Source: Telmatocola sphagniphila (GTDB lineage: Bacteria; Planctomycetota; Planctomycetia; Gemmatales; Gemmataceae). Taken from it: 32,000 bases of DNA. A program made the translations under genes and the position numbers. The notes beneath the pieces were generated by a model, which searched no databases, was not told the origin of the DNA, and saw nothing but the letters and a program-made list of their open reading frames with translations. The stretch spans positions 3,960,001 to 3,992,000 of the forward strand of contig NZ_CP074694.1 of NCBI RefSeq assembly GCF_018398935.1, in the 5' to 3' direction. Of the stretch, positions 4,915 to 26,199 are shown in pieces. Within the stretch, counting starts at the first letter, position 1. Each line of letters opens with the position of its first letter.

Positions 4915-5433
4915 TCACACAGAAGATGTTTTATCCAAGGTAGCCCTCGCCCGGCGGACTTTCTCCAGAATAGCCTCGGCTTTGGCAGTCCATTGGAATC
5001 CTTTTCCCGTGTTGTTGTGATGATCGATGTAGCCTTCAATTGCCTCGAACAACTGCGGCACACTTCGAAATATCCCTCGACGCAGTCGTTTGTCCGTTAA
5101 GTCGTGAAACCAGCGTTCCACCAGGTTCATCCAGGAACTGCTCGTGGGGATGAAATGCATGTGGAATCGAGGATGTCGGGCGAGCCAACGCTGAACTTTG
5201 GGATGCTTATGCGTCGCGTAGTTGTCCACGATCAAATGCAAGTCCAAGGCCGGATCGGTGGCGGCCTTGATCCGTTTGAGAAACTTGATCCATTCCTGGT
5301 GTCGATGTCGCGGCATGCATTCGCCAATTACTACTCCCTTGGCCACGTTCAGGGCCGCGAACAGAGTGGTGCCATGACGCGTGTAATCGTGAGTCAGAGT
5401 GCCGCAACGGCCGGGTATGATATCGTCCCGCAT
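4915..5433 (-). pseudogene. IS630-family transposase, 5'-truncated (C-terminal DDE half only)
   Basis: [11 protein letters not shown]...[20 protein letters not shown]...[17 protein letters not shown] matches the second D and the E region of IS630/Tc1-like transposases. The N-terminal HTH half and the first D are absent. The frame is closed at 5434-5436 by the stop codon of the upstream gene. Confidence 0.85.
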
Positions 5434-6201
5434 CTAACAGATATTGGCGATGGCCGCTTTTACATGATCGGCGAGTTTGTCCAAATACTGTTCCATGCCT
5501 TGCCGAGTAGTTGCCGGGTTTGTGCCTGCAATCTCATGTCCGACTTCATTCCGAAGTCGGGTGTAGATCGTCTCGTTCCGATTGAGATGAGAATTGAAGA
5601 TTTGTTGAACTCCCGGTTCTTGCCCAATAATGAAGTCATCCACATACTTCTGCGTGTATTTCGATCCACCCTCCAGTGAAAGGAGTATTTTGTACAGATG
5701 CATGAATCTTGCTACAGGATCTTCTTGGCAGATAATCCATCGGAATTGCGCATAGTAAGTGTCTTTCTTCGGATCGGATGCTCCAATGGCGATTTTTAAT
5801 CGCGGCACGTCAGCAACATTTATCGTGTGCGTAAAGCATCCACTACCTGAGAAATGGATTGTATTAGAGAAGGATCTATGGACAGTTTCTCCAGCGACTT
5901 GGACTTCGAAGCTACTATCACCTTTCACAGCATTCTCTGCAGCTATCTTGAATTCAAACGCGAGTCGATTAGCGACTTGTGTCGCGATCAATCGACCAAT
6001 GCTATCCGCATCTTCAACGGATGCGACTTGCTTGAAACAGACTTTGACGAGAATTTGTTTTTCATTAGGCGAACTGATCTCTACTCGAGCTACAAATGGA
6101 AACTCTTTTGTCGTCAAGTCGAAAGGAGTGAGTGTAAGAAAGTAATAGCCAGTTATTTTGATTTTATAGAATTGGTAGCCGGTAAGCATGAGTCCGCTCA
6201 T
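5434..6201 (-). CDS. Hypothetical protein with C-terminal HEPN-like RNxxxH motif
   Basis: 255-aa ORF with a beta-rich N-terminal half. The helical C-terminal half carries TRLRNEVGH (R217-N-E-V-G-H222, nt 5536-5553), which fits the HEPN R-N-x-x-x-H signature. The fold assignment is unverified. Confidence 0.55.
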   Translation of the reverse strand: MSGLMLTGYQFYKIKITGYYFLTLTPFDLTTKEFPFVARVEISSPNEKQILVKVCFKQVASVEDADSIGRLIATQVANRLAFEFKIAAENAVKGDSSFEVQVAGETVHRSFSNTIHFSGSGCFTHTINVADVPRLKIAIGASDPKKDTYYAQFRWIICQEDPVARFMHLYKILLSLEGGSKYTQKYVDDFIIGQEPGVQQIFNSHLNRNETIYTRLRNEVGHEIAGTNPATTRQGMEQYLDKLADHVKAAIANIC

Positions 6202-6938
6202 TTTTCCTGAGACCAGGGTATCGTTAAGTATTCAAATCACTTGAATACCCATCGCACCCAACTGTTTAACAATTCCCGTGTTGTTTCCACGCCATCGAAA
6301 CAGCGCACAACTTACTCAGAAATTGATGGCCCCATCTTGAAGATTAGTTCCGAAGCGTATTGCATGACCATAGCGACACGTTCATTGCCTCAATTTCTGG
6401 CCATCGACTGCATTCGTCGTCTGAAGTCTTGAAAGCAAGGTGTTGGAGGCATTGACATAAGCACATTATAGCACTGATAAAATCGCTGCACAATAGACTG
6501 TGTGCGTGTCTCAGCGATTTTCGATACGGGCTGAATAAAGCAGCCAAGTCAAAGCAAAAATGCACAATTTTTCGTTAGCGGATAGGCGCGTCTCGCGAAA
6601 ATTACACCCCCCCCGGTTGCATCCCAGATTAGCACCGTTTTTTGAAGTATTTCCCGGATCGGCTCTCTACTTTCCGCAATTGCATCCCTCCTTCTACTCG
6701 CGCCATAGCGGGCTCATTCGGCCTCCGACACGTCCAATGAAGGACGGAACCTTACGCGCGCACCACTGAGATGATAAAAGCAGCGGCGCGAACAGTTACG
6801 ATTACGATTTGCTGCCGCTTGGGTTTCACTTTTGGAGATTCGGCATCCAGGCCAAACTGCCGTTCCAGCTAATAAGTAAGACAGTTTCGGGTTGGTAATT
6901 GGACCTATTAACAATTTTACAAATGCACAGAAATGAAA

Positions 6939-7640
6939 CTATTCTGGAGGCGTGACAATCGCTTGAAAACGAGTTACTTGCCAATCTAGCTCCTCTTTCA
7001 TTAGCTCACCTTTGGCATGACGGGCAAATTTCGCAGCCTCGCGTGCCGCCGAAGCACCGGTGACATGGCCTCTTGAAGCTTCGGCCGCTGACTTTGCTGC
7101 CCTACCCGCAACTACGGATGCCAGTCCTAATGTCAAAGATGCTTCTTCCGCTCGACTGCAAGCGGCTTCCGACTCATTCTGCGCGTCGTCGTTCTGAGCG
7201 GCATCTGTAAATTCTCGCGCCGTAGCGATCGTTGCCATTATTACGTCCTTTTGTTGGCCCGGAGGGATGATGTCCAATACGTGTGCTGCACAATCCAATG
7301 CAAATCGCCGAGCAGTATCATCTGTCCAGGTACCGGCATAAAGTTGCCGCACGAGTCGTACCCTCTTTGCAACCGTGTATCCATCCCGTTGCAGAAAAGG
7401 AGCATTTGCATCGAACTCCACCTCGAATAGAGCGTCTCCAAGCCACTGAACCATTTCACACATATCTAGGCAGAGAAAAATGCCTTTATCCGAATTCTTC
7501 GCATTGACGTTTATTGAGAGATCGCCCTCGACTTCAGCCCAATCGCCGGGTAGATCATTGATCGGCAACTTGCCAACAAAGGCATTATTGACGCCGAAGC
7601 CAGAAGAACCATCACGGTTTAACGTCTTGAAAAATGGCAT
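6939..7640 (-). CDS. Hypothetical protein (beta-rich N-terminal module + Ala-rich helical C-terminal module)
   Basis: 233-aa ORF lying 65 nt downstream of, and co-oriented with, the 528-aa gene. The N-terminal part ends ...GDALFEVEFD. The C-terminal part (ARRFALDCAAHVLD...AAKSAAEASRGHVTGASAAREAAKFARHA) recalls Imm5-type helical immunity-like proteins, from memory only. Confidence 0.55.
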   Translation of the reverse strand: MPFFKTLNRDGSSGFGVNNAFVGKLPINDLPGDWAEVEGDLSINVNAKNSDKGIFLCLDMCEMVQWLGDALFEVEFDANAPFLQRDGYTVAKRVRLVRQLYAGTWTDDTARRFALDCAAHVLDIIPPGQQKDVIMATIATAREFTDAAQNDDAQNESEAACSRAEEASLTLGLASVVAGRAAKSAAEASRGHVTGASAAREAAKFARHAKGELMKEELDWQVTRFQAIVTPPE

Positions 7641-7705
7641 CGGATTTCCTCGGATGAATAAATAAATCTCAATAAATTGGATTAATCCCCGCAGTATTCC
7701 TGCAA

Positions 7706-9292
7706 TTATTGGTTCACCTCAAGATCACCCCATTCTTGACCGCCCTTGGCGATTACTGAGAGTAATGCATTTGAACGTTTACGCATATCGCTGGGAATTC
7801 GAGCAAGGATCTCATCTGGACCGAGAATATCTGCTTGAATATTGTCCTTAAGAGCAAGTTCTTTTAATTTTGCTTTTGCGTCTTCCCCTATAGCACCGCT
7901 AGTCCAAATCTCTGCGTAGCATCTGCCGATAGCTTTGTTTTCTTTCTTCGTCCACCATTTGCGACAAGAGGGTACGGTCTCAACGAAGAACTTGGTCACT
8001 TCGGAAGGACTCAACTCTTTATGCTCGTGGTAGGCCTTGCATTCTACCATAATAAGATCATCTCCCTTTTTTCCAAAGACATCAACATCCCGCTTACGCT
8101 CTTCCCGAAAGGGTACATCTTGGCCAAGTACGATGCCTTCCCAACCTTCTGAACGTAATACAAGCCCTGCGAGAACTTCGAATCCTATGGAGCAGAGATC
8201 CATCACAACAGGATTCGACTTTAGATTTTCCAATGCGCCTAGGAACTGCTTGAATTCATTTTCAAGAGATTTCTGTTGGCCACTAACTCTTAAATCACCG
8301 AGAATTTGTTCGACCATAACCATTGCATTCAGAGCTTCGTCACCGAACATTTGGGTGAAATTAACTGTAACCAACCCCTTATTTTTTGCTTCGTCCCAAG
8401 CATTCTTATCGAATTGACGAGCACCAATGATACCTAGATATGGCTGTCGCCTTCTCCCCCAGTTGGTCGCATTGTTTGCTCGAGTTAGAAATGATTGAAC
8501 GGCGGACAATGAGCATCGATCCGCATAAACGTCAATCAATACAGGGCAGGGAATTCGTTTTTTTGCTTCGTTGACACGTACAAGCGGAGCAAGCCAGCTA
8601 AAGCCGTATGCGGTGAAGATTTGACCACTGTAATCGACATATCCTTTCGATTGCGAGGGCAACTCGTTGCCGTTCCATGAAACTAAGCTTTGCCGCTTAA
8701 GCCGGATTGTTAATATACGCGCAAGAAGGCTCTCCTTCCGGAGTGTTAGCAGTGATCTAATCGCTAGCTCGTCATAACTACTTTGGCTTTCCCAAGAATT
8801 CTCTGTAACAAGGTATTCGAATTCCGTGCCTTTCCCTCCTACCTTCACCCCCAATTCTGCTAAAGCTGTAACTTCTTCATCGAAAGAGGGTGAATGGGGA
8901 TTGGTCGAGACCGTTGCGGCCACGAGTCGATGCGCATGCGTTCGGTGAAGGACAGTATAACGTTCCAGTGCCTCCAGACAACGTGCAAGTCCTGGTCTTA
9001 ATTCACGTAGACACTCTGCGGCTTGACGGCAAAAGCCCGGTGTACCTACGAATGAAGATCTCGCAAAAAGTCGTTCCCCATGGGGGAGTTGCAAGTGTCC
9101 AGATCTCCAGAGCTTCGGGTCGCGAGTAGATGCTCGACTGATAGACTTTTTAGCGGCATCTCTCCCCATCCCACGCTCAGCCATTCGTTTGAGCAATTCG
9201 GAAGAAGTGATGAGTTCGCATTGGCCAATCAAATCGGATGGCTTGAACTTTTGCGGAACTGCGGCAACCATGATTTCCCCCAAGAAAGTCAC
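7706..9292 (-). CDS. Protein with tandem Mrr-like restriction-endonuclease-fold (PD-(D/E)xK) domains
   Basis: The C-terminal domain (aa about 368-495) reads FEVLAGLVLRSEGW...RDVDVFGKKGDDLIMVECKAY (E417-C-K419 at nt 8036-8044), followed by ...EIWTSGAIGEDAKAKL...ADILGPDEIL. This is the Mrr_cat-like layout. The middle domain (aa about 215-315: VLIDVYADR...GIIGARQFDKNAWDEAKNKGLVTVNF) has the same layout but lacks E-x-K. The N-terminal 130 aa or so are unassigned. Confidence 0.7.
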   Translation of the reverse strand: MTFLGEIMVAAVPQKFKPSDLIGQCELITSSELLKRMAERGMGRDAAKKSISRASTRDPKLWRSGHLQLPHGERLFARSSFVGTPGFCRQAAECLRELRPGLARCLEALERYTVLHRTHAHRLVAATVSTNPHSPSFDEEVTALAELGVKVGGKGTEFEYLVTENSWESQSSYDELAIRSLLTLRKESLLARILTIRLKRQSLVSWNGNELPSQSKGYVDYSGQIFTAYGFSWLAPLVRVNEAKKRIPCPVLIDVYADRCSLSAVQSFLTRANNATNWGRRRQPYLGIIGARQFDKNAWDEAKNKGLVTVNFTQMFGDEALNAMVMVEQILGDLRVSGQQKSLENEFKQFLGALENLKSNPVVMDLCSIGFEVLAGLVLRSEGWEGIVLGQDVPFREERKRDVDVFGKKGDDLIMVECKAYHEHKELSPSEVTKFFVETVPSCRKWWTKKENKAIGRCYAEIWTSGAIGEDAKAKLKELALKDNIQADILGPDEILARIPSDMRKRSNALLSVIAKGGQEWGDLEVNQ

Positions 9293-9633
9293 GCTGCCCT
9301 TAGTATACTAATTCTTAATGCAAAGCCTTTTTGCATCCCCAAGTACGAATCGATGTAAGTTGTTACTTGATTATGACTTATGACGAGTACTTTTCTTTGC
9401 AATTAAGGCCAAAATGCCAAAAAACCGTCACTCTGCGATAAAATCGAATACGATCTTTGTATTTTCCTATCAGTCGGTATGGGACATAGTACTCTGATTA
9501 GTCTGCGTTACCAGCTTCTCAAATCCGTCAGCAAAAATGCGTCGGGGAGTAATGCGAGGTCTGTGTCAAATTGCAACGTCTCGAACCCCTTCTTCTCCCG
9601 AAACCTCTGGTAACATAATGAACGAGCATTATC

Positions 9634-9966
9634 TTGTCTCGCTATCAAGGAGGCGATGTGGAACGTGGTAAGTACATCGTGACCAGGCGGGGTCAGGCCT
9701 CGGCCTTGGGGAAGCGCCGTATGCGCCGCGTCATTGTTATGCTCGAACAGCAGCCGCAGAGCAAAAACATTAAGCCAGCAGATGCGGAGGCATTTCGAAG
9801 CGCTATCCTCAAATGGCTCAAAATGTTAGGCCAAACGGCTTTCCGAAAAAACGTTTTCCTTCAGTTGGACTTCTTCACTACCGCGAAAGACCCACCTGAG
9901 ATCTACAGTTTGCCCAAGAACTACATCGATCTGTTACGGAAGCACGCGAAGGTTGCAGATAGCTCT
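9634..9966 (+). pseudogene. RusA-like module 1, N-terminal fragment (broken by inversion)
   Basis: ...ADAEAFRSAILKWL...KNVFLQLDFFTTAKDPPEIYSLPKNYIDLLRK parallels E. coli RusA AEGQAYRDNVARIIKN...[28 protein letters not shown]. After about 9963 the listed ORF runs antisense to the minus-strand frame and loses protein character. Confidence 0.5.
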
Positions 9967-10384
9967 GGTGGGCATCCATTCGCTTCATCTGTCGCATGTA
10001 CTCAAAAGCGTCGTTGTTCAGCAGCCTTATGAATGAATCCTTGTCGTCTTCGAACTCGGCCAGTTGCTGGAAGTCTTCGTTGTCCTGAAACGGACCGCTC
10101 CCCAAGTAGTCTGTTTTCCATGCATGTCCCCGAATCAAATCCTCGTCCTCGAAGTCGTCCCAATTGATTCTTTTGACGAGGCGGACTCCGGCGAGGAAGT
10201 CGCGGAACGGCTCCGCTCGCAGCCATACTCCAGGTTTCTCAGAACGGCCACACAAGTGGTAGCGGACAATTAGCGCCTTGACCTGCCGATCGTCGCGAAG
10301 GAGTAGCCGTGGACGAGTGCTATCACCAACGCTTGGAAAGACACACCTGTTCTGGAGGCTTGTATGCCTTTCAGAATACTCCCC
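9965..10384 (-). pseudogene. RusA-like module 1, C-terminal part on an inverted segment
   Basis: The minus-strand frame is open from 10384 but has no ATG or GTG before an internal TTG at 10255. It encodes RPRLLLRDDRQVKALIVRYHLCGRSEKPGVWLRAEPF (cf. RusA [30 protein letters not shown]) and then an acidic tail. Confidence 0.5.
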
Positions 10385-10588
10385 TCAGTAAAGGAGAGTC
10401 TCACGAAAACATTTTGAATCGACTTACTTTCCAGACCAGGAACGCGTCGTTTGCCATACCATTTACGCTAGAATTACCCTGCGCAACGCAAGGGCGACGG
10501 AGAAGCGTTCGACCAAGCAATTCGAAAAACGCTCGAAAGTTACAAATCTAAGCACCACTACTTATTTCCTCTCGCAACTGTACTGAAC

Positions 10589-10948
10589 GTGACAGTCTTA
10601 ATGATCCCGTCGAAGGGTGGGGGTAAGGACCTCGATAACTTAGCCACCCGGATTATTCGGCCCCTGCACGAGATATGGGCTCCTCCGAGCGGCTTCGCGC
10701 ACGCCTCCAACACTGACAACATCAAGGAGAAGGGGAACAGGGAGTATTGGGAGAAAGCCCGCAACAAACTGCCGAAGGCACTGAAGTATTCGATCACGGA
10801 ATACCGCGTCTTTGAGCTCCCACGCTTGCCCGATGACCCTAAAGAGGGTTTCGTCCGGCTCGCCTTCGACGGCGGCTTGCAGCCCGTGCAGTTTCGTGAG
10901 GAGAGCGACGATTACCTTGAAAAGTGGGAAAACTCCTTTGACCTCTGA
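10589..10948 (+). CDS. RusA-like module 2 (start uncertain; similarity extends upstream to 10472 with no start codon)
   Basis: LNVTVLMIPSKGGGKDLDNLATRIIRPL resembles the RusA [16 protein letters not shown] block, and ...ITEYRVFELPRLPDDPKEGFVRLAF is the terminal hairpin. The same frame upstream (from 10472) reads GDGEAFDQAIRKTLES, paralogous to module 1, but contains no ATG/GTG/TTG (only ATT/CTG) before the GTG at 10589. Confidence 0.5.
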   Translation: MTVLMIPSKGGGKDLDNLATRIIRPLHEIWAPPSGFAHASNTDNIKEKGNREYWEKARNKLPKALKYSITEYRVFELPRLPDDPKEGFVRLAFDGGLQPVQFREESDDYLEKWENSFDL

Positions 10949-11154
10949 CCAACCAATGACAATTGAATATCCAACTAGGAACTCGAACACGTCGATACAC
11001 TTCAGGGGAAAAGGAAGGCTCTGAACAAGGAAAAAGCTTTCCCTTCCTTGCAACTGAATGCATTCGCCTTTTATCGTTCGACCAGACGCGATCTTGAGGC
11101 AACTGGTCACTATATCCTGCTGCCGGAAGCTGAGTTGTAATTCGTCACTCTATA

Positions 11155-11562
11155 TCATTTATTGGTATACAACGAAATTGCTTCGTCAGTTGTCATCGTT
11201 TGGAAGGATTCGGCAAAATTCGACCGATTTGTCTCGAAACTCTCCTTGCATTTCACCGGAACAAAAAGTATGAGATCGGAACGGCTTCTCGTCATAGCGA
11301 CATAAGCTATTCTCCTCGCTTCGCGATCCTTCGTATTATTAGACCACCAAATTTGTGAAGGGCAATTAGCTGTATTCGTTCGGTCTGGACAGACAAAAAT
11401 CGAAATATCATGAGTTTCTCCTTTGACTGCATGGACTGTCTCAATTGATATTGATCTGGCAGATATTTGCTGGCTTTTGAATGGAATAGTAACATTCGCA
11501 ATTTCAGATGCTGACGTTAGCTTTTTGGGTTTGGGTACAGTCGTTGGAGTGGCCAATCCTTT
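11155..11562 (-). pseudogene. gajB: UvrD-like helicase GajB, 3' part (split by ISAs1 insertion)
   Basis: ...SIETVHAVKGETHDISIFV...RIAYVAMTRSRSDLILFV matches helicase motifs V/VI. The first 11 codons of the listed ORF (MFSWNLSAISL) are IS-end sequence. The gajB sequence begins at KGLATPTTV. Confidence 0.85.
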
Positions 11563-12851
11563 CAGGGAAATCGCGCTTAAATTCCAAGAAAACATCTAAT
11601 GTCATTAATTGTATTGCGCATCGTTCTTCTTTAGTGGAGGATGTGGAAATCGCTCGCTAGATCGCCCTGGGGTTCCTCGATGTTTCAGCTTTCCGAACTA
11701 TCTCCCGCGCCGGCGAAAACTCCGTTGACCGATCTCCTCGTCCACTTCGCGGATTTGCCCGACCACCGCCTCGATCGTTGCCAACAACACACGCTTTCGG
11801 AAATCATTTTCATAGCCATTTGCGCCGCGGTTTCCGGAGCCAACGACTGGGTGGCCGTCGAAGCTTTCGGCGTGACCAAGATCGACTGGTTCCGGAAGTA
11901 TCTCCCTTGCCCAACGGCATCCCGAGCCATGACACTTTCGGCCGAGTTTTCCGCTATCTGGACACGGATGCTTTCGAGGCCTGCTTCGCTTCATGGATGG
12001 CGGAAATCTGCGTCGGGACCGACCTGCTTCAGGTGGCGATCGACGGCAAGACGATGCGTTCGTCAGGCGGTCCGGGTCAGAAGTGCCTGCACGTGGTCAG
12101 CGCGTTTGCGACGGCCAACCGCGTGACGCTGGGCCAAGAGGCGGTGGACGATAAATCGAACGAGATCACCGCGATCCCGGAATTGCTGAAACGGCTGGAC
12201 ATTGCCGGAAAAATCGTGACTATCGACGCGATGGGCTGTCAAAAAAATCGCCGAGGCGGTGCGGGAACGGGACGCGGATTACCTGTTGGCGGTGAAGGAC
12301 AATCAACCGACTCTCTTGGCCGAGATCAAGGCTCATTACTTCAAGCATTTGGAGTCCGGATTCGCCGATGTACCGACGACGTTCTGCGAATCGACGGAGA
12401 AGAATCGAGGCCGAGTGGAGTACCGTTCGTGCCTCGTGTTTTCGGACGTCAATTTCTTATCGATGAAGGACGATTGGAAAGGCTTGAAGACGGTGGTCGT
12501 GGTGGTGACCGACCGCCGAGAAAACCACAAGAGCGCGAGCGAAATCCGCTACTATATTTGCAGCCGAGCGTCGGACGCTCCGGTGTTGGCGAAAGCGGTC
12601 CGGGAACATTGGACGATCGAGAATAATTTGCATTGGTCCTTGGATGTGACATTCGGCGACGACGACAGCCGGGTTCGAAAAGATAACGGCCCTCAGAATT
12701 TCGCCAGGATTAAAAGGTTGGCTCTGAGCATAGTGGCGAATGCGAGCGGCAAGGAATCGATGGCAGTCAAACGACTGAAAGCCTGCGCCAGCGATGAACG
12801 CCGAGAATTAATTATTCGAGAATTCCTTCAGCTTTAAATGCGATTTCCCTG
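11563..12851 (+). mobile_element. ISAs1-family insertion sequence, copy 1 (1289 bp)
   Basis: Terminal inverted repeats CAGGGAAATCGCGCTTAAA (left) and CAGGGAAATCGCATTTAAA (rc of right), 17/19. Exact 10-bp direct duplication CCAATCCTTT at 11553-11562 and 12852-12861. Essentially identical to 24911-26199. Confidence 0.9.
11641..12837 (+). pseudogene. ISAs1-family (H-repeat/YhhI-like) transposase with two frameshifts
   Basis: The N-terminal part in frame 1 reads ...LLVHFADLPDHRLDRCQQHTLSEIIFIAICAAVSGANDWVAVEAFG...WFRKYL. The middle in frame 3 reads LPNGIPSHDTFGRVF...VAIDGKTMR...SNEITAIPELL...IDAMGCQK. The C-terminal part returns to frame 1 (DYLLAVKDNQ...HWTIENNLHWSLDVTFGDD). The shifts lie near 11905 (C-run) and at the A7 run 12241-12247. 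Confidence 0.85.
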
Positions 12852-14250
12852 CCAATCCTTTGATTGCGGCTACAGCAGAAATATGCCTGGTTATAATTGT
12901 CCACGCTTTGCTCTGCCAACCAAAAAGTGTATCATTAACATCTAATGAATCGCCTTCAAGGAGGCACTGGACACATCGTTCTCTCCATTCAAATACCGAC
13001 AAACCATATTTAGATAGCTGCTCATCAGTAATTCCTTCCTGTTCGAACAGAGCTAATTCGAGCGAAGCCCGGCAAGCCGCGAGGGCCAAGGAGTTTTGTC
13101 CTTGACGGAAAGCAATCACAGCGCGTTGGAAGTGGTTTAAGGGTGGGCTACCCAATTTGCGAGGCTGTTCTGATTTGTGACCTTTTAGTACCCTTACGGT
13201 CATGTTGAGTCTTGCGATAGCTTTGATAACCGAATTTGAATGCGATTTACTAACCGCCGCAGACAGCCGATTGAAATCTACAACCATGTCATCATAAGTC
13301 ACCATAAGCGCCCTACCGACAGGGTTATTTTCGGGAGATACGATGTTTCCTGTCTCCTTCAAGTGACTTGCCACTTTAGCAACCGATTTTGAGCAACGAA
13401 GACTCGTGCTCAATGGAAAGACCTCAGCATCCTGGATGATCTCAAACTGGTCAAACAAATCTGGTCGCGCACCGTTAAATTCAAAAATTGACTGGTCAGG
13501 GTCGCCAACAAGAACGCCGCGCACATATGAGCTGCTTAAAATGCTCTTCAGACATTTACTCAAGAAGAAACCGGTGTCTTGCAATTCATCAATAAAAATT
13601 AAAGGGAAACGGCGTGTGATCTCAGTGATAATTAACGCCTTATATTTTTCATCTTCTAAAAGCTTGCTTGCCCACAACGCGGCATCTGAATGAGTCATAA
13701 GGCCAGATTTCTTCCAAACATTATTTTTACATTCTTTTACAATTCTCAGATCGTCTCCTGTCAATTTGATTAATGGCTGCATTGGGTGAGGTTTTCTCGC
13801 TGCAATTGCGCCTTGACAGTCTTCATCAATCCAGACGCAGCTACAGAGGTTAATGCCTTTGCCTACATTCGCCTTCAGGCCTTTGCCAAGGCTGCTCCAA
13901 TGCTCTGCTCCCCATTCGCCGGGTAACAACCGAGGGTGGCGGAAGATCGGATAACATTTGCAAAAAAATGGACGAATCACATAGCGAAATAGAAAAGAAT
14001 CGATTGTTCCCACAAAATGTGGATGGCTTAGATCGCGACCGACCGCCTTTCGAATTTCTTCTCCGCCAACCTTTGTGAATGACAAAGCTGCAATGCCGCT
14101 GGTTTGGGTTTGCCAAGAGTTTAGCTCGCGGAGGATTAGTTCGGCCACCATCCAAGTCTTTCCGCTGCCGGGCGATGCGCGTACCACGCGGATTCGAGAC
14201 CCGTTTTTGTTGTCAATAACTGCCTGCTGCTCAACGGTCGGAAACCTCAT
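12852..14250 (-). pseudogene. gajB: UvrD-like helicase GajB, 5' part (split by ISAs1 insertion)
   Basis: Walker A VRASPGSGKTW and motif II IFIDELQDT are present. The listed 480-aa ORF ends ...AAIKGL then reads into the IS end (AGKSHLKLKEFSNN). Removing the IS and one duplication copy joins ...AAIKGL|ATPTTV... in frame. The start overlaps the gajA stop (ATGA at 14247-14250). Confidence 0.85.
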
Positions 14251-16085
14251 TGTGTAGAGTCTCCTGAAGAATGGTCTTTTGGTGGATCAATTCCCGTAAC
14301 AACGAAGTCAATTGCTCTACTGAGATACGGCGGCACTGCGAATTCGAGCGTACAGGCTGTGCATTTGCTAGAAATGGTTAACTTGGCAGCCAATTTGTGC
14401 GCAAATTCGGCTTTGCTTCCTGTGTGATTGGCACGACATATCCCTCGCCAAGTTGCTAACGCGCGGTCTTTTAGATCGTTGCCTGCTTTAGCCAGCCTAT
14501 CTTTGTTGAAGGTTGTGGGCTTTTTTTCAAAGCATGATTCCCAAACATCTGCCATGACGTTAGCGTTGTTGTTGCCCGCTAGAGCTAGATCATATTCGAG
14601 TGTTAGTGCCGAACTGAAGACTTGAACCGAAGTGTGCTTGTCAAATAGCAACCTAAGATTGACCATGCGCGCCGATGGTACGAATTCCCCATCTTTCATT
14701 TCAGGCACCGCTTCTTCCCACTTCACATTCGTAGGCACGGAAGGATCAGAATCTGATACAATCGCCACGGGGATTCCAAAACCTTTGGTGTCAAACAGCT
14801 TTTTGAATGTCCCAAACGCTACACCACAGATGGGAATTACAGAAATGTGCAGTTTCGCCAAATCGCGTCCAAGACGTTTGGCCAATGGTGGAAGAAGAAG
14901 TGCTTCTGAAATTCCCTCAACAAGTATTACGGCTTTTGCAAAATAAAGCGTCGCTCGCGTAACATCAAGCATCCGCTGAAGGTCTGATTCTTCCGTGGGA
15001 GTCATTCCCGAATTTGCGATTCGGTTGCAATGGAGCGATCCCATTTTGTCCGCGAACAGGACCGAGATTCGGCATGGCTGCACACTCGCCGCCAGCGTTG
15101 GGGAGTGAGTTGTGACTATGGTTTGAGGAGTTTTGGAGCCAGGTGTCTTGTTAGACAAATACTCAGCGAGCAGCATAGTAAGCTGAGGATGCAAATGAGC
15201 CTCCGGCTCCTCGATAAGCAGGAGGGGGCTTTCGTCGGGCACTGGCTCTCGAAGATGCTCTAGGACAACCGCAATATAGAGCAAATTATTGTAGCCTAGC
15301 CCGTTAGCTTCAAGATCGCCAATTGGTGCTCCATCCATTTGGATGTGAAGCAAACGAAGTATTCGTTCAAATTCAACTTCTGCTGCCCTAATCGCAGATG
15401 GGGAGTAGTCGCTACCAGCAAGTTCAATCGTAGTAGACTGAAGAGAGGTAATGGTTCCTTTAATTAAATCATGCTTTTCGAGCTCATGGTTCGCTTGGCT
15501 ATAGATCGACTCAATGTCCGTTTTGACTGTGCCACCTCGACGCTCCGCAAGATCGCGTAGCAGCAGTGCAAGCCTACTTCGGCTCCCAGGAGTAAGAGAT
15601 GCTTTCGCATCACGAAGGGCAGGAAGATACGTGACAGGCAAGGACTCTAAAATCCGCGTCGAAATATCTTGTGTGTCTGGGGCAACAGGGCCGCCAGTTC
15701 TCCGAATCTGGGCCTGCCTTTTCCCTTTTGGCCAGCTAGCCGTGAATTTGATAACCGCTTTGGAATTAGCAAGGTTCGTTACATTGAAATCAACTATTTC
15801 GAAAAAATGTGAGCGTTGTTCCGCCGAAAGATCTGCGAAGGTTAGAGTTATCGAAATCGTTCGGTATTCAGTATCTTCTACAGATTCCTTGAAAAAGTCA
15901 TCTCGGTCAAGCCAAAGAGATTCACCTCTAGACGCGCTAGGGCCAAGTGCATGACGTATAGCATCTAAGATTGCAGTTTTGCCAGTATTGTTTCTACCGA
16001 CTACCACATTTAGCCCTGCACCTAAATCTACCCTCAAGGATTTGATCGCACGAAAATTCTCGATTTCAACAATGGATAGAAACAT
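14247..16085 (-). CDS. gajA: OLD-family ATPase/TOPRIM nuclease GajA
   Basis: N-terminal ABC-type ATPase (IENFRAIK...VVGRNNTGKTAILDAI, ...LLLIEEPEAHLHPQ) and C-terminal TOPRIM (VILVEGISEALLLP, VAIVSDSDPS). It sits immediately upstream of a UvrD-like helicase, which is the class-2 OLD / Gabija arrangement. Confidence 0.85.
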   Translation of the reverse strand: MFLSIVEIENFRAIKSLRVDLGAGLNVVVGRNNTGKTAILDAIRHALGPSASRGESLWLDRDDFFKESVEDTEYRTISITLTFADLSAEQRSHFFEIVDFNVTNLANSKAVIKFTASWPKGKRQAQIRRTGGPVAPDTQDISTRILESLPVTYLPALRDAKASLTPGSRSRLALLLRDLAERRGGTVKTDIESIYSQANHELEKHDLIKGTITSLQSTTIELAGSDYSPSAIRAAEVEFERILRLLHIQMDGAPIGDLEANGLGYNNLLYIAVVLEHLREPVPDESPLLLIEEPEAHLHPQLTMLLAEYLSNKTPGSKTPQTIVTTHSPTLAASVQPCRISVLFADKMGSLHCNRIANSGMTPTEESDLQRMLDVTRATLYFAKAVILVEGISEALLLPPLAKRLGRDLAKLHISVIPICGVAFGTFKKLFDTKGFGIPVAIVSDSDPSVPTNVKWEEAVPEMKDGEFVPSARMVNLRLLFDKHTSVQVFSSALTLEYDLALAGNNNANVMADVWESCFEKKPTTFNKDRLAKAGNDLKDRALATWRGICRANHTGSKAEFAHKLAAKLTISSKCTACTLEFAVPPYLSRAIDFVVTGIDPPKDHSSGDSTQ

Positions 16086-16445
16086 AATTTTCAGGAACTC
16101 CTGCTATAGTTTGCATTTAGATCCGCCACCATCATCCCTTCCTTCATTGCATCGTGCAACGCAACCGAATCGTGCCATTTGGATAGTTTCTCAGCTTGAT
16201 CGGAGAGGAACTACGAGTCAGTCAATACGCGAGATAATTGGCGAGTATTTCTGTCATCGTTTAACTCAAAAACTAATATAACAAATTCAATTGTTTAGCG
16301 AAACCTATTCTTGATTGTACCTACCCGTCCTGTTTTGGCAAAACAGCGACTTAGCAAAATTAACGTATCCGATCGGCCAAGGAAGTGGTGAGCTCCAACC
16401 GAGTGAGTGTGCTTTCACGGTTCAAGAACTGTTTTTCGCCCAACT

Positions 16446-16957
16446 TTACGGTAGCATCATGGGAAGTTGCTCTTTCGGTGTGATGGGCAGTCGGATCAAG
16501 ACATCGCGGAGATATTCCCAGGGATTGATTTTGTGCATCAGGCAAGTGGCGGTGAAGCTGGAGAGAATCGACAGGGTTCGTCCGCCGTTGTCGGAGCCGA
16601 AGAATAACCAGTTTCGTCGTCCGATGGCATAAGGTTTAATCGCTCGCTCGGCCACGTTGTTATCGATGCTCAATCTCCCATCGGTGATATATACATTCAG
16701 GGCTTTCCACTGATTCAATGAATAGCCGACCGCTTCTCCGATCGGGCTTTTGGGCAGGACTTGCTTCTGGAGTTTTTCCAGCCAGGTGCCGAAGGACTCC
16801 AAGATCGGTTTCGCCTCCGCTCGGCGCGTGCGGGAGCGGTCAAGCCTTTAGCCCGATCTTCAATCGCATAGAGGAGTTTGATCCGACCGTCGAAGCTCTT
16901 CCGTATGTCGGTGGGCGTCATGCACAGAAGAATCTTCACCGAGGTGTAGTTCAGCAT
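16446..16957 (-). pseudogene. IS66-family TnpB'-TnpC' deletion fusion with a frameshift
   Basis: The first 24 codons or so (MLNYTSVKILLCMTPTDIRKSFDG) match the IS66 orf2 N-terminus. They then read directly into the TnpC C-terminal region (IKLLYAIEDRAKGL...). After a frameshift the sequence continues ESFGTWLEKL...LPKSPIGEAVGY...IDNNVAERAIKPYAIGRRNWLFFGS. Confidence 0.7.
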
Positions 16958-17356: not shown

Positions 17357-18069
17357 TCACCAACCGGAGACTAGAAAAAAACGCATTGTCGACACTGCCA
17401 ACTGCGCAAGATAGGTTAGAGCTCCGATGATCGAGATTTTCTGACGGCGACCGGCTTTTTGTTTGAGATAAGGTCGCAGGCCTTTGGGAGCCCAGGTGCG
17501 TCGCAAGAGGGGAGCCAGTCTCAGTCCGGTTTCATCGATGAATACGATAGGCGCCCGCCGGCGATCCCCTTTTTTAAGATTCGGGACCACTCGGTTTTCG
17601 GCCAATCGGCAATTTTCTGTTCCTCGCGTTGGACGGCTTTCTTGCCCGGCATTTGCGGGGAGAAACCTTGTTTGCGTAACCAATCGCAAAAGTAATTGGC
17701 ATTATAATCGATATCAAACATCTCCTTGATGAGTTGGACGACTCGCCGAGAAGTCCACAGGTGAGTGCGGAAGCCGAACTCCGTCGCGTCACGGGTCAGC
17801 CAGGAGCAAACTTCTTGAATTTGCTCTGGGCGGAGCTTGGATTTCGGTCCGGGATGCTTGAGAGCCTTGAGTCCGGCTTCCCCTTGATTTTTGTACCAGG
17901 AGATCCAATTATCCACGCTGCGGGTCGAAACCTTGAGCATGTCGGAAACCTGCTTTATAGTATGGCCTTCGAGGATCAATTGAACGCCCAAACGGCGTCG
18001 GTTCTCCATCTCCGGGCGATTAGTAACTTTCTTGACCAAACGAGGGATGCTTTTCGTTTCCATGCCCAT
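17357..18069 (-). pseudogene. IS630-family transposase, 3'-truncated, two frames joined at an A_AAA_AAG site
   Basis: ORF A (17521..18069) carries the HTH / winged-helix N-terminal part. The -1 frame (to 17357) continues ...RRAPIVFIDETGLRLAP...KISIIGAL (first catalytic D) and then breaks off. The slippery heptamer lies at 17569-17575 on the minus strand. Confidence 0.8.
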
Positions 18070-18319
18070 CGTATGGATGGGCTATTTCCAGAATCAAATC
18101 GATTGAAAACAATCTCGCGAATTGAAATTACTACTCCAAATGCTTGGATGTTTTTACAACGAATACATCAGATTGAGAGGGAGTTATACTAATAAAATAT
18201 CCCTAAATGTTAATCAGAAAACTGTTGATACGGACCTTTTTCATCTTCGAATTGTTTATTCGAGTCATTTCGTTCGATCAGTTTCCATAAAAAACCCTTT
18301 TTTCCCGGCTCTTCCGTTT

Positions 18320-18993
18320 CTAGGTGTAGCATTCAGAGAAATACTTCTGGATCTGGTTGACGAAGCCGCGAATCTCCGCAATGGTCGGCCCTAATTTTTT
18401 CGCAGCCCAATTCACGTCCAGGAGTATTCTCGTCCAGAGCGTAGTTAGACTCTGAATTCCATAACTCCGACGTAGCACTACCCGAATCTTGGTATTCAGA
18501 CCTTCCACCGGGCCGCTGCTTTTGCGTTCCTCGAAGTAGGCTAAGATCCCCTCCCAGTTATTCTTGAGCATCGTGATGAACGGCTCCCAATCCATCTCGG
18601 TCTCGCGGGCCTGGACGATCCAATCTTCCAACAGTCGCGAGGCTTCGGCTCGGTTCGGGGCCGTATCGAAGATCTTGGTCGCCTCCCAACGCAGATGGTA
18701 GATCGTTCCCAACGAAGGCACCTTCTCGAACAAATCCTCGAGGGCCTGGACCTGCTCCGGTTTCAAATCCTCGGGACGACGCCGGAAGTCGTGCATCTGA
18801 GAACGCAGCTTCTTGCGGGCTTCCCCGCTCAAACTTCGCTTGTAGGCTCGATAGTTTTTTTTCGCAGATCGTCCGCCACCTCCCCCAATTTCTTGGCGAC
18901 GTGAAAGCGATCTATCACCGACTGGCTGTTGGGTAAATGCACGCCGCAAGCCTTCAAATACGCCGCGCTCATGTCCGTATGATGCCAACGCAC
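18320..18993 (-). pseudogene. ISL3-family transposase, C-terminal part (also frameshifted at a T8 run)
   Basis: VRWHHTDMSAAYLKACGVHLPNSQSVIDRFHVAKKL... is followed, after a frameshift at the homopolymer 18855-18862, by ...YHLRWEATKIF...GPVEGLNTKIRVVLRRSYG. Confidence 0.85.
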
Positions 18994-19064
18994 CGCCGTG
19001 GTAATCCTTATCCAAAACGGGCCCACCTCCTTGCCGAAAACGGGCCCACCCCGGGTAATTGAAA

Positions 19065-21407
19065 CTACCGCGGGTTCCCGCGGGCGACCAAATTCTCCAG
19101 ATTGAATCGGTTTGCCATATTGCCTTCGTTTACTTGTTCGCTTTGGCATTCTTCTTGGTTTTCATCGACTCTCGGAAGCGATAACTTTCGCCGTTCATCT
19201 CGAAGATGTGGCAGCGGTGGGTGAGCCGATCGAGCAATGCCGCCGTCATCCGTTCGCCCTGAAAGATCTGCACCCAGTCCCCAAACGGCAGATTGCTGGT
19301 GATCAGTAAACTCCTCCGTTCGTAGCGTTCGGCAAAGACCTGGAAGAGCAATTCCGCCGCCATCCGACTGAACGTCAAATACCCCAGCTCGTCGACTATC
19401 AACAAATCGACTCGCTCCAACTGCTGCAAAAAGCGGTCGAGTTGATGCTGCTTCTGAGCTTCTTCCAGATGATTGACCAAGCCGGCGGCAGTAAAGAAGC
19501 GGACGCGTCGTCCGGCTCGGCAAGCCGCCAGGCCCAAGGCAATCGAGAGGTGGGTTTTCCCGGTTCCGGAATCGCCGACTAAGCAGCAGTTGAAGTGCTG
19601 GTCGATCCATTCGTTGCGGGTCAGTTCCAGGATTTTGGGTTTGTTCAGGGAAGGCTGGGCGGTGAAGTCGTAGGTGTCGAAATCCTTCAAGGCGGGGAAG
19701 TGGGCCTGTTTGATCCGACTTTTGAGGACGTTGGCCGCTCGGGCAGTCACTTCCAGTTCGGTCAGACGGAGCAGGTACTGTTCGTAATTCTCGTTGGCCT
19801 GAGCCGCCTCGCGGGCCAGGGCTTCGAATTCGGCTTGGATCGTCGGCAGGCGAAGTTGCTTCAGATTGGTTTTGAGCAGCAGTCGGTGAGTCTCGATCAT
19901 CGGGGGTTTCTCCGAGGGATAAGAAGCGGTTGAATTTTTTCAGATCGGGCGGGGGTAAATGAATGTCGCGAAGGGCCTCCGGCTGTTGATCCTTGGGGAG
20001 CGAAGCCGCTAGAGAATCGCCGCAGGTGCCGCGTACGCCGTGCAGGATGGCTTCGAGATCGAAGCCCGCTTCGGAGCGTTTCTTTTCGATCTCGCATCGA
20101 ACATCCTCGATGGGATGATCTTGAAGTAACAGCAGAATCCGAGCGTACTGCTTGCGACCGCGATTAGCACCGTGCTGTTTTTCCAGAGATTTACGCAGCT
20201 CTTCAAACAGAGGAGGTAAGCGCCAGCGGCGAAACAGATCGGAGTGGTCGAGGGCGGCCGGCCGCTGCTGCAGCGTGCTCAGATAATGGCGGGGATCCAG
20301 AATCTGCTCGTGACGTTGGTAAGAACGAGGATGGGAAGCGATCGTCTGAGCGCCGAGCACTACATCGATCCGTTCGACGTAGACCTTCACCGTCACCGTT
20401 TGAAAGGCCGCCGAGCGGGGAACGCTGTAGCGATTGTTGTCGTAGCGGACCATCTGATACTTGTCGACCTTGCCCGATTCGTGGAGGCAGGGATCGAACG
20501 GACGAGGCGGCAGCAGCAAAGCCTTCTCCAATTCGCTCGCGAAGCGTTGGCCGATGGTCTGCGTTTGCCCTTGCTGCGTCCGCTGGCGATCGCGTTCGCA
20601 GCAGGTTCTTAAATGGGCATTCAACTCGGCCAGATTCCCAACGGAAGGAACCGGCGTCGCCCAGTCCCGCTGCAAGTGCCGGACTCGGCCTTCGACGTGC
20701 GGCTTCTCCTGAGGTCGACGGACCAGGCAGAACAGCGGCTGAAATGCATAGTGACTGCTCAAGGCCTGGTACCGTTCGTTGATCTGGCGTTCCCGACCGG
20801 CGAACGGATGCGGGGCCACCGTTTTGGGATTGTCCCACCAGAGTTCCCGCGGCGTCGCACCGAAGAAATGGAAAGCTTCGACCAGACCATGCAGGATCGC
20901 CTCGGTCCGTTCGCTGGGCAACGCCAACACGAAGGGGCAATTGGAGTAAGCCCAGGTCGTCACCAGAACGGGAACCAACTGGCGACCACCGGGAAAATCG
21001 ACGTGAATGTGGCCGAAATCCGCTTCGAGTCGCTGACCCGGCTCCGATTGAAGGGGAATAAACGTCTCGCGTTGGACTCGATGCTGAGACTGCACGTAAA
21101 CTCGGATGCGATCGTAGCTCCCGCGATAGCCATGCTCATCGCGCAGCCGACGGTAAATCTTGGCCGCGGTGTGACGCTGCTTGCGGGGAGCTTCTCGATC
21201 GCTCCGCAGGATCTCCTCAATAATCGCTGTGAAAGAGTCGAGCAGCGATGGCATGGCTCGTCGCTGGTACGGCTTGGGTTCCGGCTCGTCGAGAATCTGA
21301 CGGATCTTCCGCCGGGAATGATGAAAAGTCCGGGCCAGTGCACGGATGCCCATCTTATCTATTCGATGAGCCTGACGTATTCTCGCGTATTCGTCCACCT
21401 TGACCAT
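19065..21407 (-). CDS. istA: IS21 transposase IstA (780-codon ORF; IstA similarity ends near residue 505)
   Basis: HTH N-terminus, then an rve/DDE core (...EADFGHIHVDF...VTTWAYSNCPFVLALPSE...WWDNPKTV...). Recognisable IstA sequence ends around ...PPDLKKFNRFLS (about nt 19890). The frame then stays open across all of istB. Confidence 0.85.
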   Translation of the reverse strand: MVKVDEYARIRQAHRIDKMGIRALARTFHHSRRKIRQILDEPEPKPYQRRAMPSLLDSFTAIIEEILRSDREAPRKQRHTAAKIYRRLRDEHGYRGSYDRIRVYVQSQHRVQRETFIPLQSEPGQRLEADFGHIHVDFPGGRQLVPVLVTTWAYSNCPFVLALPSERTEAILHGLVEAFHFFGATPRELWWDNPKTVAPHPFAGRERQINERYQALSSHYAFQPLFCLVRRPQEKPHVEGRVRHLQRDWATPVPSVGNLAELNAHLRTCCERDRQRTQQGQTQTIGQRFASELEKALLLPPRPFDPCLHESGKVDKYQMVRYDNNRYSVPRSAAFQTVTVKVYVERIDVVLGAQTIASHPRSYQRHEQILDPRHYLSTLQQRPAALDHSDLFRRWRLPPLFEELRKSLEKQHGANRGRKQYARILLLLQDHPIEDVRCEIEKKRSEAGFDLEAILHGVRGTCGDSLAASLPKDQQPEALRDIHLPPPDLKKFNRFLSLGETPDDRDSPTAAQNQSEATSPADDPSRIRSPGPRGGSGQRELRTVPAPSDRTGSDCPSGQRPQKSDQTGPLPRLEGFRHLRLHRPAFPEQTQNPGTDPQRMDRPALQLLLSRRFRNRENPPLDCLGPGGLPSRTTRPLLYCRRLGQSSGRSSEAASTRPLFAAVGASRFVDSRRAGVFDVQSDGGGIALPGLCRTLRTEEFTDHQQSAVWGLGADLSGRTDDGGIARSAHPPLPHLRDERRKLSLPRVDENQEECQSEQVNEGNMANRFNLENLVARGNPR
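19130..19900 (-). CDS. istB: IS21 helper ATPase IstB
   Basis: Walker A GDSGTGKTHL, Walker B LLIVDELGY and ...LLITSNLPFGDW... are classic IstB features. Confidence 0.9.
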   Translation of the reverse strand: MIETHRLLLKTNLKQLRLPTIQAEFEALAREAAQANENYEQYLLRLTELEVTARAANVLKSRIKQAHFPALKDFDTYDFTAQPSLNKPKILELTRNEWIDQHFNCCLVGDSGTGKTHLSIALGLAACRAGRRVRFFTAAGLVNHLEEAQKQHQLDRFLQQLERVDLLIVDELGYLTFSRMAAELLFQVFAERYERRSLLITSNLPFGDWVQIFQGERMTAALLDRLTHRCHIFEMNGESYRFRESMKTKKNAKANK

Positions 21408-24910: not shown

Positions 24911-26199
24911 CAGGGAAATCGCGCTTAAATTCCAAGAAAACATCTAATGTCATTAATTGTATTGCGCATCGTTCTTCTTTAGTGGAGGATGTGGAAATCG
25001 CTCGCTAGATCGCCCTGGGGTTCCTCGATGTTTCAGCTTTCCGAACTATCTCCCGCGCCGGCGAAAACTCCGTTGACCGATCTCCTCGTCCACTTCGCGG
25101 ATTTGCCCGACCACCGCCTCGATCGTTGCCAACAACACACGCTTTCGGAAATCATTTTCATAGCCATTTGCGCCGCGGTTTCCGGAGCCAACGACTGGGT
25201 GGCCGTCGAAGCTTTCGGCGTGACCAAGATCGACTGGTTCCGGAAGTATCTCCCTTGCCCAACGGCATCCCGAGCCATGACACTTTCGGCCGAGTTTTCC
25301 GCTATCTGGACACGGATGCTTTCGAGGCCTGCTTCGCTTCATGGATGGCGGAAATCTGCGTCGGGACCGACCTGCTTCAGGTGGCGATCGACGGCAAGAC
25401 GATGCGTTCGTCAGGCGGTCCGGGTCAGAAGTGCCTGCACGTGGTCAGCGCGTTTGCGACGGCCAACCGCGTGACGCTGGGCCAAGAGGCGGTGGACGAT
25501 AAATCGAACGAGATCACCGCGATCCCGGAATTGCTGAAACGGCTGGACATTGCCGGAAAAATCGTGACTATCGACGCGATGGGCTGTCAAAAAAATCGCC
25601 GAGGCGGTGCGGGAACGGGACGCGGATTACCTGTTGGCGGTGAAGGACAATCAACCGACTCTCTTGGCCGAGATCAAGGCTCATTACTTCAAGCATTTGG
25701 AGTCCGGATTCGCCGATGTACCGACGACGTTCTGCGAATCGACGGAGAAGAATCGAGGCCGAGTGGAGTACCGTTCGTGCCTCGTGTTTTCGGACGTCAA
25801 TTTCTTATCGATGAAGGACGATTGGAAAGGCTTGAAGACGGTGGTCGTGGTGGTGACCGACCGCCGAGAAAACCACAAGAGCGCGAGCGAAATCCGCTAC
25901 TATATTTGCAGCCGAGCGTCGGACGCTCCGGTGTTGGCGAAAGCGGTCCGGGAACATTGGACGATCGAGAATAATTTGCATTGGTCCTTGGATGTGACAT
26001 TCGGCGACGACGACAGCCGGGTTCGAAAAGATAACGGCCCTCAGAATTTCGCCAGGATTAAAAGGTTGGCTCTGAGCATAGTAGCGAATGCGAGCGGCAA
26101 GGAATCGATGGCAGTCAAACGACTGAAAGCCTGCGCCAGCGATGAACGCCGAGAATTAATTATTCGAGAATTCCTTCAGCTTTAAATGCGATTTCCCTG
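24911..26199 (+). mobile_element. ISAs1-family insertion sequence, copy 2 (1289 bp)
   Basis: Same ends and the same ORF pattern as copy 1. I noticed one difference (G at 12735 vs A at 26083, synonymous). The flanks (...CTATTTTGG | ACTGAAGAGC...) show no direct duplication. Confidence 0.9.
24989..26185 (+). pseudogene. ISAs1-family transposase with the same two frameshifts as copy 1
   Basis: The ORF-track translations in all listed frames are identical to copy 1, at an offset of 13348 nt. Confidence 0.85.

Follow-up and report, generated by a model that had tools for sequence, protein, structure and literature searches.

An apparently recent gene breakage in Telmatocola sphagniphila and a family of proteins predicted to fuse two RusA folds

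Organisation of the locus

The DNA considered here is a 32-kb stretch (32,000 nucleotides) of the 6.6-Mb genome of Telmatocola sphagniphila (Gemmataceae; contig NZ_CP074694.1), and is referred to throughout as the window. Proteins encoded in it match exactly QVL30312.1 (KIH39_15780), QVL30319.1 and QVL30329.1 from the 6.59-Mb chromosome of this species. Between 9658 and 10948 its plus strand carries what reads, from the sequence, as a single and recently broken gene; an ancestor of about 431 codons, running from GTG at 9658 to TGA at 10948 and encoding two RusA-fold modules, would now lie in four pieces, and the whole pseudogene is recognised by tblastn and by its repaired translation. An initial annotation of this DNA had described a tandem locus starting at 9634, in which a second module overlapped the end of the first. 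The two modules are however parts of one gene, and the overlap reflects a frameshift that had been missed, caused by a 5-bp deletion near 10481/10482. The true start also lies downstream of the one proposed, at GTG 9658, as homologues begin MERGKY and align to V-E-R-G-K at this point, and a Shine-Dalgarno-like AAGGAGG can be read on the plus strand at 9647-9653, 4 nt before the GTG. The gene call at this locus in a matching Logan contig, of 124 residues, likewise runs from 9658, ending at 10032.

When the window is searched by tblastn with P0004, one of the homologous proteins, it is matched in four pieces that together account for residues 1-432 of the query: residues 1-95 at 9658-9942 on the plus strand, residues 105-227 at 10312-9956 on the minus strand, residues 234-277 at 10345-10476 on the plus strand in the frame of the first piece, and residues 272-432 at 10454-10936 on the plus strand in the next frame. 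Codons 1-102 (9658-9963, plus strand, from alignment and tblastn) make up the N-terminal half of module 1, that is strand 1, helix 1, strand 2 and helix 2 as placed by the structural models, with the invariant K87 and D91 in LPKNYIDLL. Codons 103-220 plus one nucleotide then follow in reverse, as a 355-bp segment (9964-10318, minus strand) delimited by the minus-strand tblastn piece and by junctions free of insertions or deletions (indels); this segment holds strands 3 and 4 of module 1 and its helix 3, with the invariant motif D111-D112 in RDDRQVKAL (position 111 being D or N across the family), and the first part of a helical linker. Codons 221 to about 275 (10319-10481, plus strand, from tblastn and alignment) resume the original frame with the end of the linker and strand 1 of module 2 (...FTLELP). 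Beyond the deletion site (10480-10485, plus strand), where a shift of +1 is seen both in a DNA alignment with six homologous genes and as the change of frame in tblastn, module 2 continues on the plus strand in the +1 frame from 10482 to 10948, reading QRKGDGEAF ... KDLDNLATR ... SITEYRVFELPR ... FDL, with the invariant D-L-D-N and a TGA stop at 10946-10948.

The frame on the minus strand that contains RPRLLLRDDRQVKAL is open from 10384 and, as had been noted before, has no ATG or GTG start; neither ATG, GTG nor TTG is found in it before a TTG at 10255. The +1 frame from 10472 reads NYPAQRKGDGEAF... and stops at 10948. The Logan contig (L033 483-953) has a gene call for a 156-residue open reading frame (ORF) antisense to module 2 (10640-11110, minus strand); given the conserved coding sequence on the plus strand here, this call is almost certainly spurious.

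The restored gene and its homologues

It had been proposed in the initial annotation that one module was split by an inversion of about 355 bp, and that flipping 9964-10318 would give a 305-codon ORF from 9634 to 10551. Translation after reverse complementing these positions does indeed yield a 305-codon frame over 9634-10551 without interruption, with the same junction peptides, ...KVADS/TRPRLLLRDD... and ...MDAHQS/YHQRLERH... (the slash marks the junction); the junction DNA expected once the segment is flipped back is GCAGATAGCACTCGTCC and CCAGAGCTATCACC.

Among 5.8 billion proteins searched with the restored 305-residue sequence, 32 were matched, the top one at 70% identity over 91% of the query. 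Most of these are hypothetical proteins of 433-435 residues from Planctomycetota metagenome bins, none has a Pfam domain, and all are collinear with the restored sequence over both junctions and then on into module 2 (...FTLELPCAPQRKGEGEAFDRALREALESYKAKHRYLFPLATVLNVTVL...), the homologues being single ORFs of 400-450 residues that span both modules; the suggestion that the ancestral state was a two-module protein is thus borne out. When the restored window gene and six homologous genes are aligned as nucleotides, neither junction shows an indel. By tblastn with P0004 the remaining loci, about 24 distinct places drawn from the contigs encoding the homologous proteins and from two collection scans, are all collinear on one strand, so that none has the arrangement of the window, and no further inverted copies were found in the two scans. 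Most of these collinear loci are matched in one piece, with L002/L009 in two pieces in shifted frames and L015 in two pieces in one frame. Because the homologues are collinear and the window is matched in four pieces, the ancestor would have been one gene of about 431 codons, to which the window copy has added two lesions.

With both lesions repaired the translation is 431 residues long, free of stops, and 57-72% identical to the homologues P0001, P0002, P0004 and P0015; furthermore the six residues invariant in the family are all kept, as K87, D91, D112, D326, D328 and N329. The inactivation of the window gene therefore appears recent, given that no stops have accumulated in the 431 repaired codons and that every family-invariant residue is retained.

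Several other copies in the family look damaged in their own ways. L001 (about 3534) diverges past approximately residue 327, L002/L009 (about 7968-7975 and 10164-10171) have an N-terminal frameshift, the match in L017 (1333) ends at residue 360 though the contig goes on, and L018 and L019 match only to residue 360, where their contigs end. The protein P0016 runs after approximately residue 283 into a phage-integrase N-terminal domain (an Int_N match). It appears that either decay or insertion is frequent in this gene, or some of the damaged copies are metagenome assembly errors.

Origin of the two lesions

The imperfect inverted repeat that had been reported at both breakpoints was reproduced. 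Its arms, TTGCAGATAGCTCT (9953-9966) and AGTGCTATCACCAA (10316-10329), match at 11 of 14 positions, or at 78% over 18 nt, around a perfect 6-bp core of GATAGC on the left (9958-9963) and GCTATC on the right (10319-10324), both arms being placed by a repeat search and breakpoint statistics and assigned to neither strand. Against a null of all position pairs 354 nt apart in the window, a perfect inverted run of at least 6 across the junction has P = 0.002 and a match of at least 11/14 at the junction has P = 1.6e-4, and it is on these values that the microhomology at the breakpoints is judged not to be there by chance. The 1.3 kb around the gene contain 23 inverted-repeat pairs of similar quality in total, and the breakpoint pair is no better than the other 22. 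GATAGC/GCTATC is not present at the homologous sites of 14 homologous genes, and in the window the repeat is built from non-conserved codons, GAT AGC on the left and AGC TAT C on the right.

The second lesion is seen in the DNA alignment with six homologous genes, where the window has CCCTG-----CGCAACGC and the homologous locus L001 has CCCTGTGCGCCGCAACGG; the precise place of the 5-bp deletion near 10481/10482 is ambiguous within a GC-rich repeat.

The lesions themselves are observed directly, and a simple course of events can be proposed for them. A chance 6-bp inverted microhomology, GATAGC/GCTATC, would have allowed the 355-bp segment to be inverted through illegitimate recombination or replication template switching, and an independent 5-bp deletion near 10481/10482 would have shifted the frame ahead of module 2. 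The inversion would thus have been a one-off illegitimate event, its mechanism being read from the microhomology, and it belongs to the known class of mutational inversions bounded by microhomology; a paper on invertons (10.1101/2023.03.11.532203) cites as this class the 7-bp flips of mitochondrial DNA that need no enzyme.

Extent of the family and its predicted fold

The intact relatives are predicted to constitute an undescribed bacterial family in which two copies of the RusA fold are fused in one chain. Literature searches on RusA fusions or pseudo-dimers, and on defence genes resembling RusA, brought up no relevant report. In a library of 1.84 billion proteins the family comprises 605 clusters at 50% identity (E up to 1e-3), the best matches listed being mostly of 400-450 residues, and its members are found in Planctomycetota, Acidobacteriota, Chloroflexota, Actinomycetota, Bacillota and Armatimonadota.

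P0004 was modelled with AlphaFold2 from 26 sequences, with a predicted local distance difference test (pLDDT) score of 81 and a predicted template modelling (pTM) score of 0.82. The model has two modules of strand-helix-strand-helix-strand-strand-helix, at residues 25-154 and 274-434, separated by a helical linker about 110 residues long. When the full-length model was compared with the PDB using Foldseek, E. coli RusA was the best match and accounted for seven of the first eight, with probabilities of 0.99-1.00 and template modelling (TM) scores, normalised to RusA, of 0.61-0.70. Module 1 modelled alone has a pLDDT of 88, and here all seven RusA chains come first (E 1.5e-6 to 5.5e-5, TM 0.60-0.71, probability 1.00), with the next fold at E of about 1e-2, a gap of roughly 200-fold in E-value. 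The named matches among the top 50 to the full-length model in a viral structure library are nearly all RusA/Rus resolvases.

Profile comparisons point the same way. With 132 diverse representatives of the family, hhalign aligns module 1 to module 2 over 121 columns (P = 3.8e-5), module 1 to RusA over 96 columns (P = 0.008) and module 2 to RusA over 102 columns (P = 0.0013), and the three alignments are mutually in register; the probabilities against RusA are 5-18%. Such alignments are uninformative with 26 close sequences (an effective number of sequences of about 2) and informative with the 132 representatives. A hidden Markov model (HMM) of module 2 matches RusA at E = 5.4e-6 across strand 2 and DLDNL. 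The RusA query was checked to be identical to 1q8r_A, and its profile is shallow, the retrievable homologues all being enterobacterial and at least 69% identical. The two modules are therefore supported as paralogues, which would have arisen by internal duplication.

Sequence libraries yield little. No Pfam family was matched by the window pieces, by the restored ORF, by module 2 or by six distant homologues, and one of 26 family members touches PF05866, the RusA family, below threshold at E = 0.0014; the RusA-like PHROGs 140 and 34 are weakly matched (E = 0.03-0.45). For the fragments, the restored ORF and the homologues NCBIfam gave no match that reached threshold and PADLOC reported none, and the family profile found no PDB sequence at E up to 10. 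Of the earlier proposal that the modules are RusA-like, the fold (in the models) and the paralogy (in hhalign) stand, and membership of PF05866 at threshold does not; as modelled, the likeness to RusA holds at the level of the fold only. It would seem from the models that the family works like RusA and descends from something like it.

Catalytic residues and a possible composite site

Six polar positions are exactly invariant in 132 of 132 representatives (P0004 numbering), and residue equivalences to RusA were taken from hhalign and the HMM registers. Module 1 supplies K87, D91 and D112, equivalent to K76, D80 and D91 of RusA, and module 2 supplies D330, D332 and N333, equivalent to D70, D72 and N73, so the complementary catalytic pattern pointed out from the window alone extends across the family. 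The full RusA catalytic set (D70, D72, D90/D91 and K76) is present only when both modules are combined.

In RusA itself D70, D72, K76 and D90 are critical for endonuclease activity, and D70, D72 and D91 are the cation-site residues (PMC1636454). In the D70N mutant N70 of one subunit hydrogen bonds to D91 of the other, the cation-site residues closing up across the dimer interface (PMC1636454), and because this contact crosses subunits a composite site in the fused protein is plausible. The complementary invariants suggest one composite active site, the symmetry-related one having been lost. On this basis an intact member would be a single-chain pseudo-dimer of the RusA Holliday-junction-resolvase fold in which one catalytic centre is kept, built from the D-x-D-N of module 2 (RusA D70, D72 and N73) and the K...D...DD of module 1 (RusA K76, D80 and D90/D91). 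We would anticipate an asymmetric, Mg-dependent, structure-specific endonuclease making a one-sided nick or cut in branched DNA, and not a symmetric resolvase. A fuller scenario, of duplication and fusion with each half keeping a complementary half of an interface-spanning centre and the product serving as a stand-alone effector of defence or mobile islands that cuts branched phage or plasmid DNA, is put forward tentatively, as a possibility that we would not yet favour.

Alternative explanations

It is probable, in our judgement, that the observations are jointly explained by a recently dead gene for a protein of two RusA folds, disrupted by a one-off inversion and a 5-bp deletion, whose relatives would be single-chain pseudo-dimers with a composite site. 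Several points weigh against this. A single orientation is known from two assemblies, a low-level other orientation may be present, and the Logan contig and the reference genome may derive from the same reads; the screen for recombinases covered the 32-kb window of a 6.6-Mb genome. The kinship with RusA is not significant by Pfam or NCBIfam and is argued from predicted structures and pairwise profile P-values, the model-based evidence coming from the full-length chain and from module 1 alone. Which residue corresponds to RusA K76 is ambiguous, as hhalign gives K87 and the register of the initial annotation sets K87 opposite D72; whichever register is taken, module 1 is without the acidic pair at 70/72 and module 2 without the equivalents of 90/91.

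Phase variation typically targets defence and surface genes, and a programmed switch, unlikely as it is here, has to be considered. In such an intragenic inverton a recombinase encoded elsewhere would flip 9964-10318 to turn the gene ON or OFF, the culture being in, or locked in, OFF. An inverted repeat does lie exactly at both breakpoints, protein-truncating intragenic invertons are known with repeats down to 11 bp, and invertons in the reverse state at about 100% may be locked once the repeat or invertase has been lost (10.1101/2023.03.11.532203); the repeat here however has only 6 perfect base pairs (11/14), is one of 23 comparable pairs in 1.3 kb, is missing at the homologous sites of the 14 genes, and the segment is not inverted at any of the other distinct loci, roughly 24 in number. 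The search for an invertase in the window met DDE, rve and ISL3 transposases only, with no serine or tyrosine recombinase among them, and since the frameshift truncates the protein before module 2 the gene would be dead in either orientation, including the supposed ON state. Moreover a contig of a k-mer graph runs unbroken through both junctions, which argues against an appreciable second orientation, and we consider an inverton improbable. That same contig, Logan SRR14506984_141, is identical to the window (100% over 6203 bp, window 5390-11592) with both junctions and the deletion included, and a second contig of SRR14506984 matches window 12824-16530 at 100%, the two ending about 30 nt inside an insertion sequence (IS) as expected of a k = 31 graph assembly. 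Chimeric long reads are able to create local inversions, and the fully open restored frame with all its invariant residues would fit a genome in which the gene is intact and the inversion, the deletion or both are errors of assembly or sequencing; an independent assembly carrying both lesions, a 5-bp deletion outside a homopolymer (an atypical sequencing error) and the true disruption of the adjacent gajB by an IS, consistent with real decay, make such an artefact very improbable. It is scarcely credible that the present layout is functional, with small genes on both strands yielding independent products, namely a 124-residue fragment of the N-terminus, one from the minus strand and one comprising module 2: gene callers do give the ORF at 9658-10032 and a 119-residue GTG ORF at 10589-10948, but the minus-strand frame is without ATG, GTG or TTG before 10255 and is missing half a domain, every fragment cuts into a predicted fold unit, the 605 clusters from the library of 1.84 billion proteins consist mostly of proteins with two modules and about 400-450 residues, and the layout is seen in no homologue.

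A last alternative concerns the family and not the lesions, namely that it is unrelated to RusA, a generic two-layer alpha/beta sandwich in which the D-L-D-N and DD-x-QV motifs are coincidental. The failure to match Pfam, NCBIfam or PDB sequences at threshold, the low hhalign probabilities of 5-18% and the moderate TM-scores of 0.6-0.7 would all be in keeping with this. Set against them are the first place of RusA in the PDB (7/8 matches with the full-length model, 7/7 with module 1), the dominance of RusA/Rus resolvases in the viral library, the approximately 200-fold E-value gap to the next fold, the weak independent matches to PF05866 (E = 0.0014) and to PHROGs 140 and 34, and the fall of the six invariant polar residues exactly on positions of RusA known to be catalytic or conserved, D70, D72, N73, K76, D80 and D91 (PMC1636454); we regard an unrelated fold as unlikely.

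Genomic neighbourhood

Elsewhere the neighbours of homologues include HEPN_AbiU2, DUF4365, SLFN_AlbA_2, PLDc_2, AAA_15, the type I restriction genes HsdR/HsdS, phage integrase and transposases. No neighbour was found to be conserved in an all-against-all BLAST of the ORFs within 6 kb at 22 loci, near-identical contigs aside, and members of the family thus behave as stand-alone genes of variable regions. A multi-gene system had also been considered and was dropped, as no neighbour is conserved across the 22 loci.

In T. sphagniphila the pseudogene sits in a decaying defence island ridden with IS elements. Directly downstream of it lies a Gabija defence system (11155-16085). Its gajA gene (14247-16085, minus strand) has stayed whole (PADLOC GajA, E = 1e-126), and gajB is split into an N-terminal part at 12808-14250 and a C-terminal part at 11155-11595 by a 1289-bp IS at 11563-12851. 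A second copy of this IS lies 13 kb away at 24911-26199; the two copies, each of 1289 bp with DDE_Tnp_1_assoc and DDE_Tnp_1 domains, are 99.9% identical. In both, the transposase frame is broken in the same way, into three ORFs of 161, 282 and 192 residues that overlap one another; this could be due to decay or to programmed frameshifting. Upstream of the pseudogene and divergent from it is a 521-residue hypothetical protein (7706-9271, minus strand) with a weak C-terminal match to Mrr_cat (E = 0.0019) and no PADLOC match, which may be another defence gene.

The 32-kb window is unusually rich in mobile elements. Further transposase genes or fragments lie at 70-507, 4915-5433 and 17521-21407, with DDE_Tnp_1, DDE_3, ISL3 and Mu-type rve plus Mu-transpos_C_2 among them, and an ORF with a helix-turn-helix domain (17521-18069) stands among the mobile-element genes. 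Near the end of the window a 491-residue protein (29795-31270, minus strand) has a pretoxin HINT domain (PT-HINT, E = 2.6e-24) and, after it, a C-terminus like that of a methyltransferase, a layout that resembles a polymorphic toxin.

Significance

As the copy in the window is dead it is of small importance of its own. It does provide a clean example, calibrated by homologues, of a microhomology-bounded inversion inside a gene, and a warning that fragments on opposite strands can stem from one ancestral ORF. The larger point is the family, with a few hundred clusters, a double RusA fold that is predicted with confidence, and six absolute invariants split between its halves. If the reading of a composite site is true, it would be a natural experiment on a RusA active site shared across the dimer interface, and a naturally asymmetric junction- or branch-specific nuclease. 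The recurrent defence and mobile-element neighbours make it, furthermore, a candidate single-gene defence effector.

Comparison with known systems

The inversion resembles other inversions at microhomology or short inverted repeats in having a perfect short microhomology at both breakpoints with no bases gained or lost. Nothing sets it apart from these, although it is unusually clean, with breakpoints defined by 24 collinear homologues. With the intragenic invertons described by Chanin et al. (10.1101/2023.03.11.532203) it shares the inversion, between inverted repeats, of a segment wholly within a coding sequence and the truncation of the product. Those invertons are reversible and enzyme-mediated, with both orientations in the population, whereas here there is a 6-bp microhomology unconserved in homologues, no invertase nearby, one orientation in two assemblies and a second lesion.

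The architecture of the intact relatives recalls, by analogy only, the LAGLIDADG homing endonucleases, among which I-CreI is homodimeric and the monomeric two-domain enzymes are single-chain pseudo-dimers. In both cases the subunit of a dimeric nuclease would have been duplicated and fused, with asymmetric divergence of the halves; the folds are unrelated, and the complementary catalytic losses that would leave a single centre are particular to the present family.

Another comparison is with E. coli RusA (PDB 1Q8R, 2H8C and 2H8E; PF05866), the top structural match, whose fold order is found in each predicted module. Module 2 keeps a D-L-D-N like the D70-L-D72-N73 of RusA, and module 1 keeps a K...D and a DD-x-QV like K76, D80 and D90-D91-A-Q-V. 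RusA is a homodimer of 120-residue subunits, each with the full catalytic residues, whereas the family would have two diverged modules in one chain of about 435 residues, with some 110 residues of helical linker and about 35 residues inserted into module 2, sequence similarity under Pfam thresholds, and half of the catalytic set in each module.

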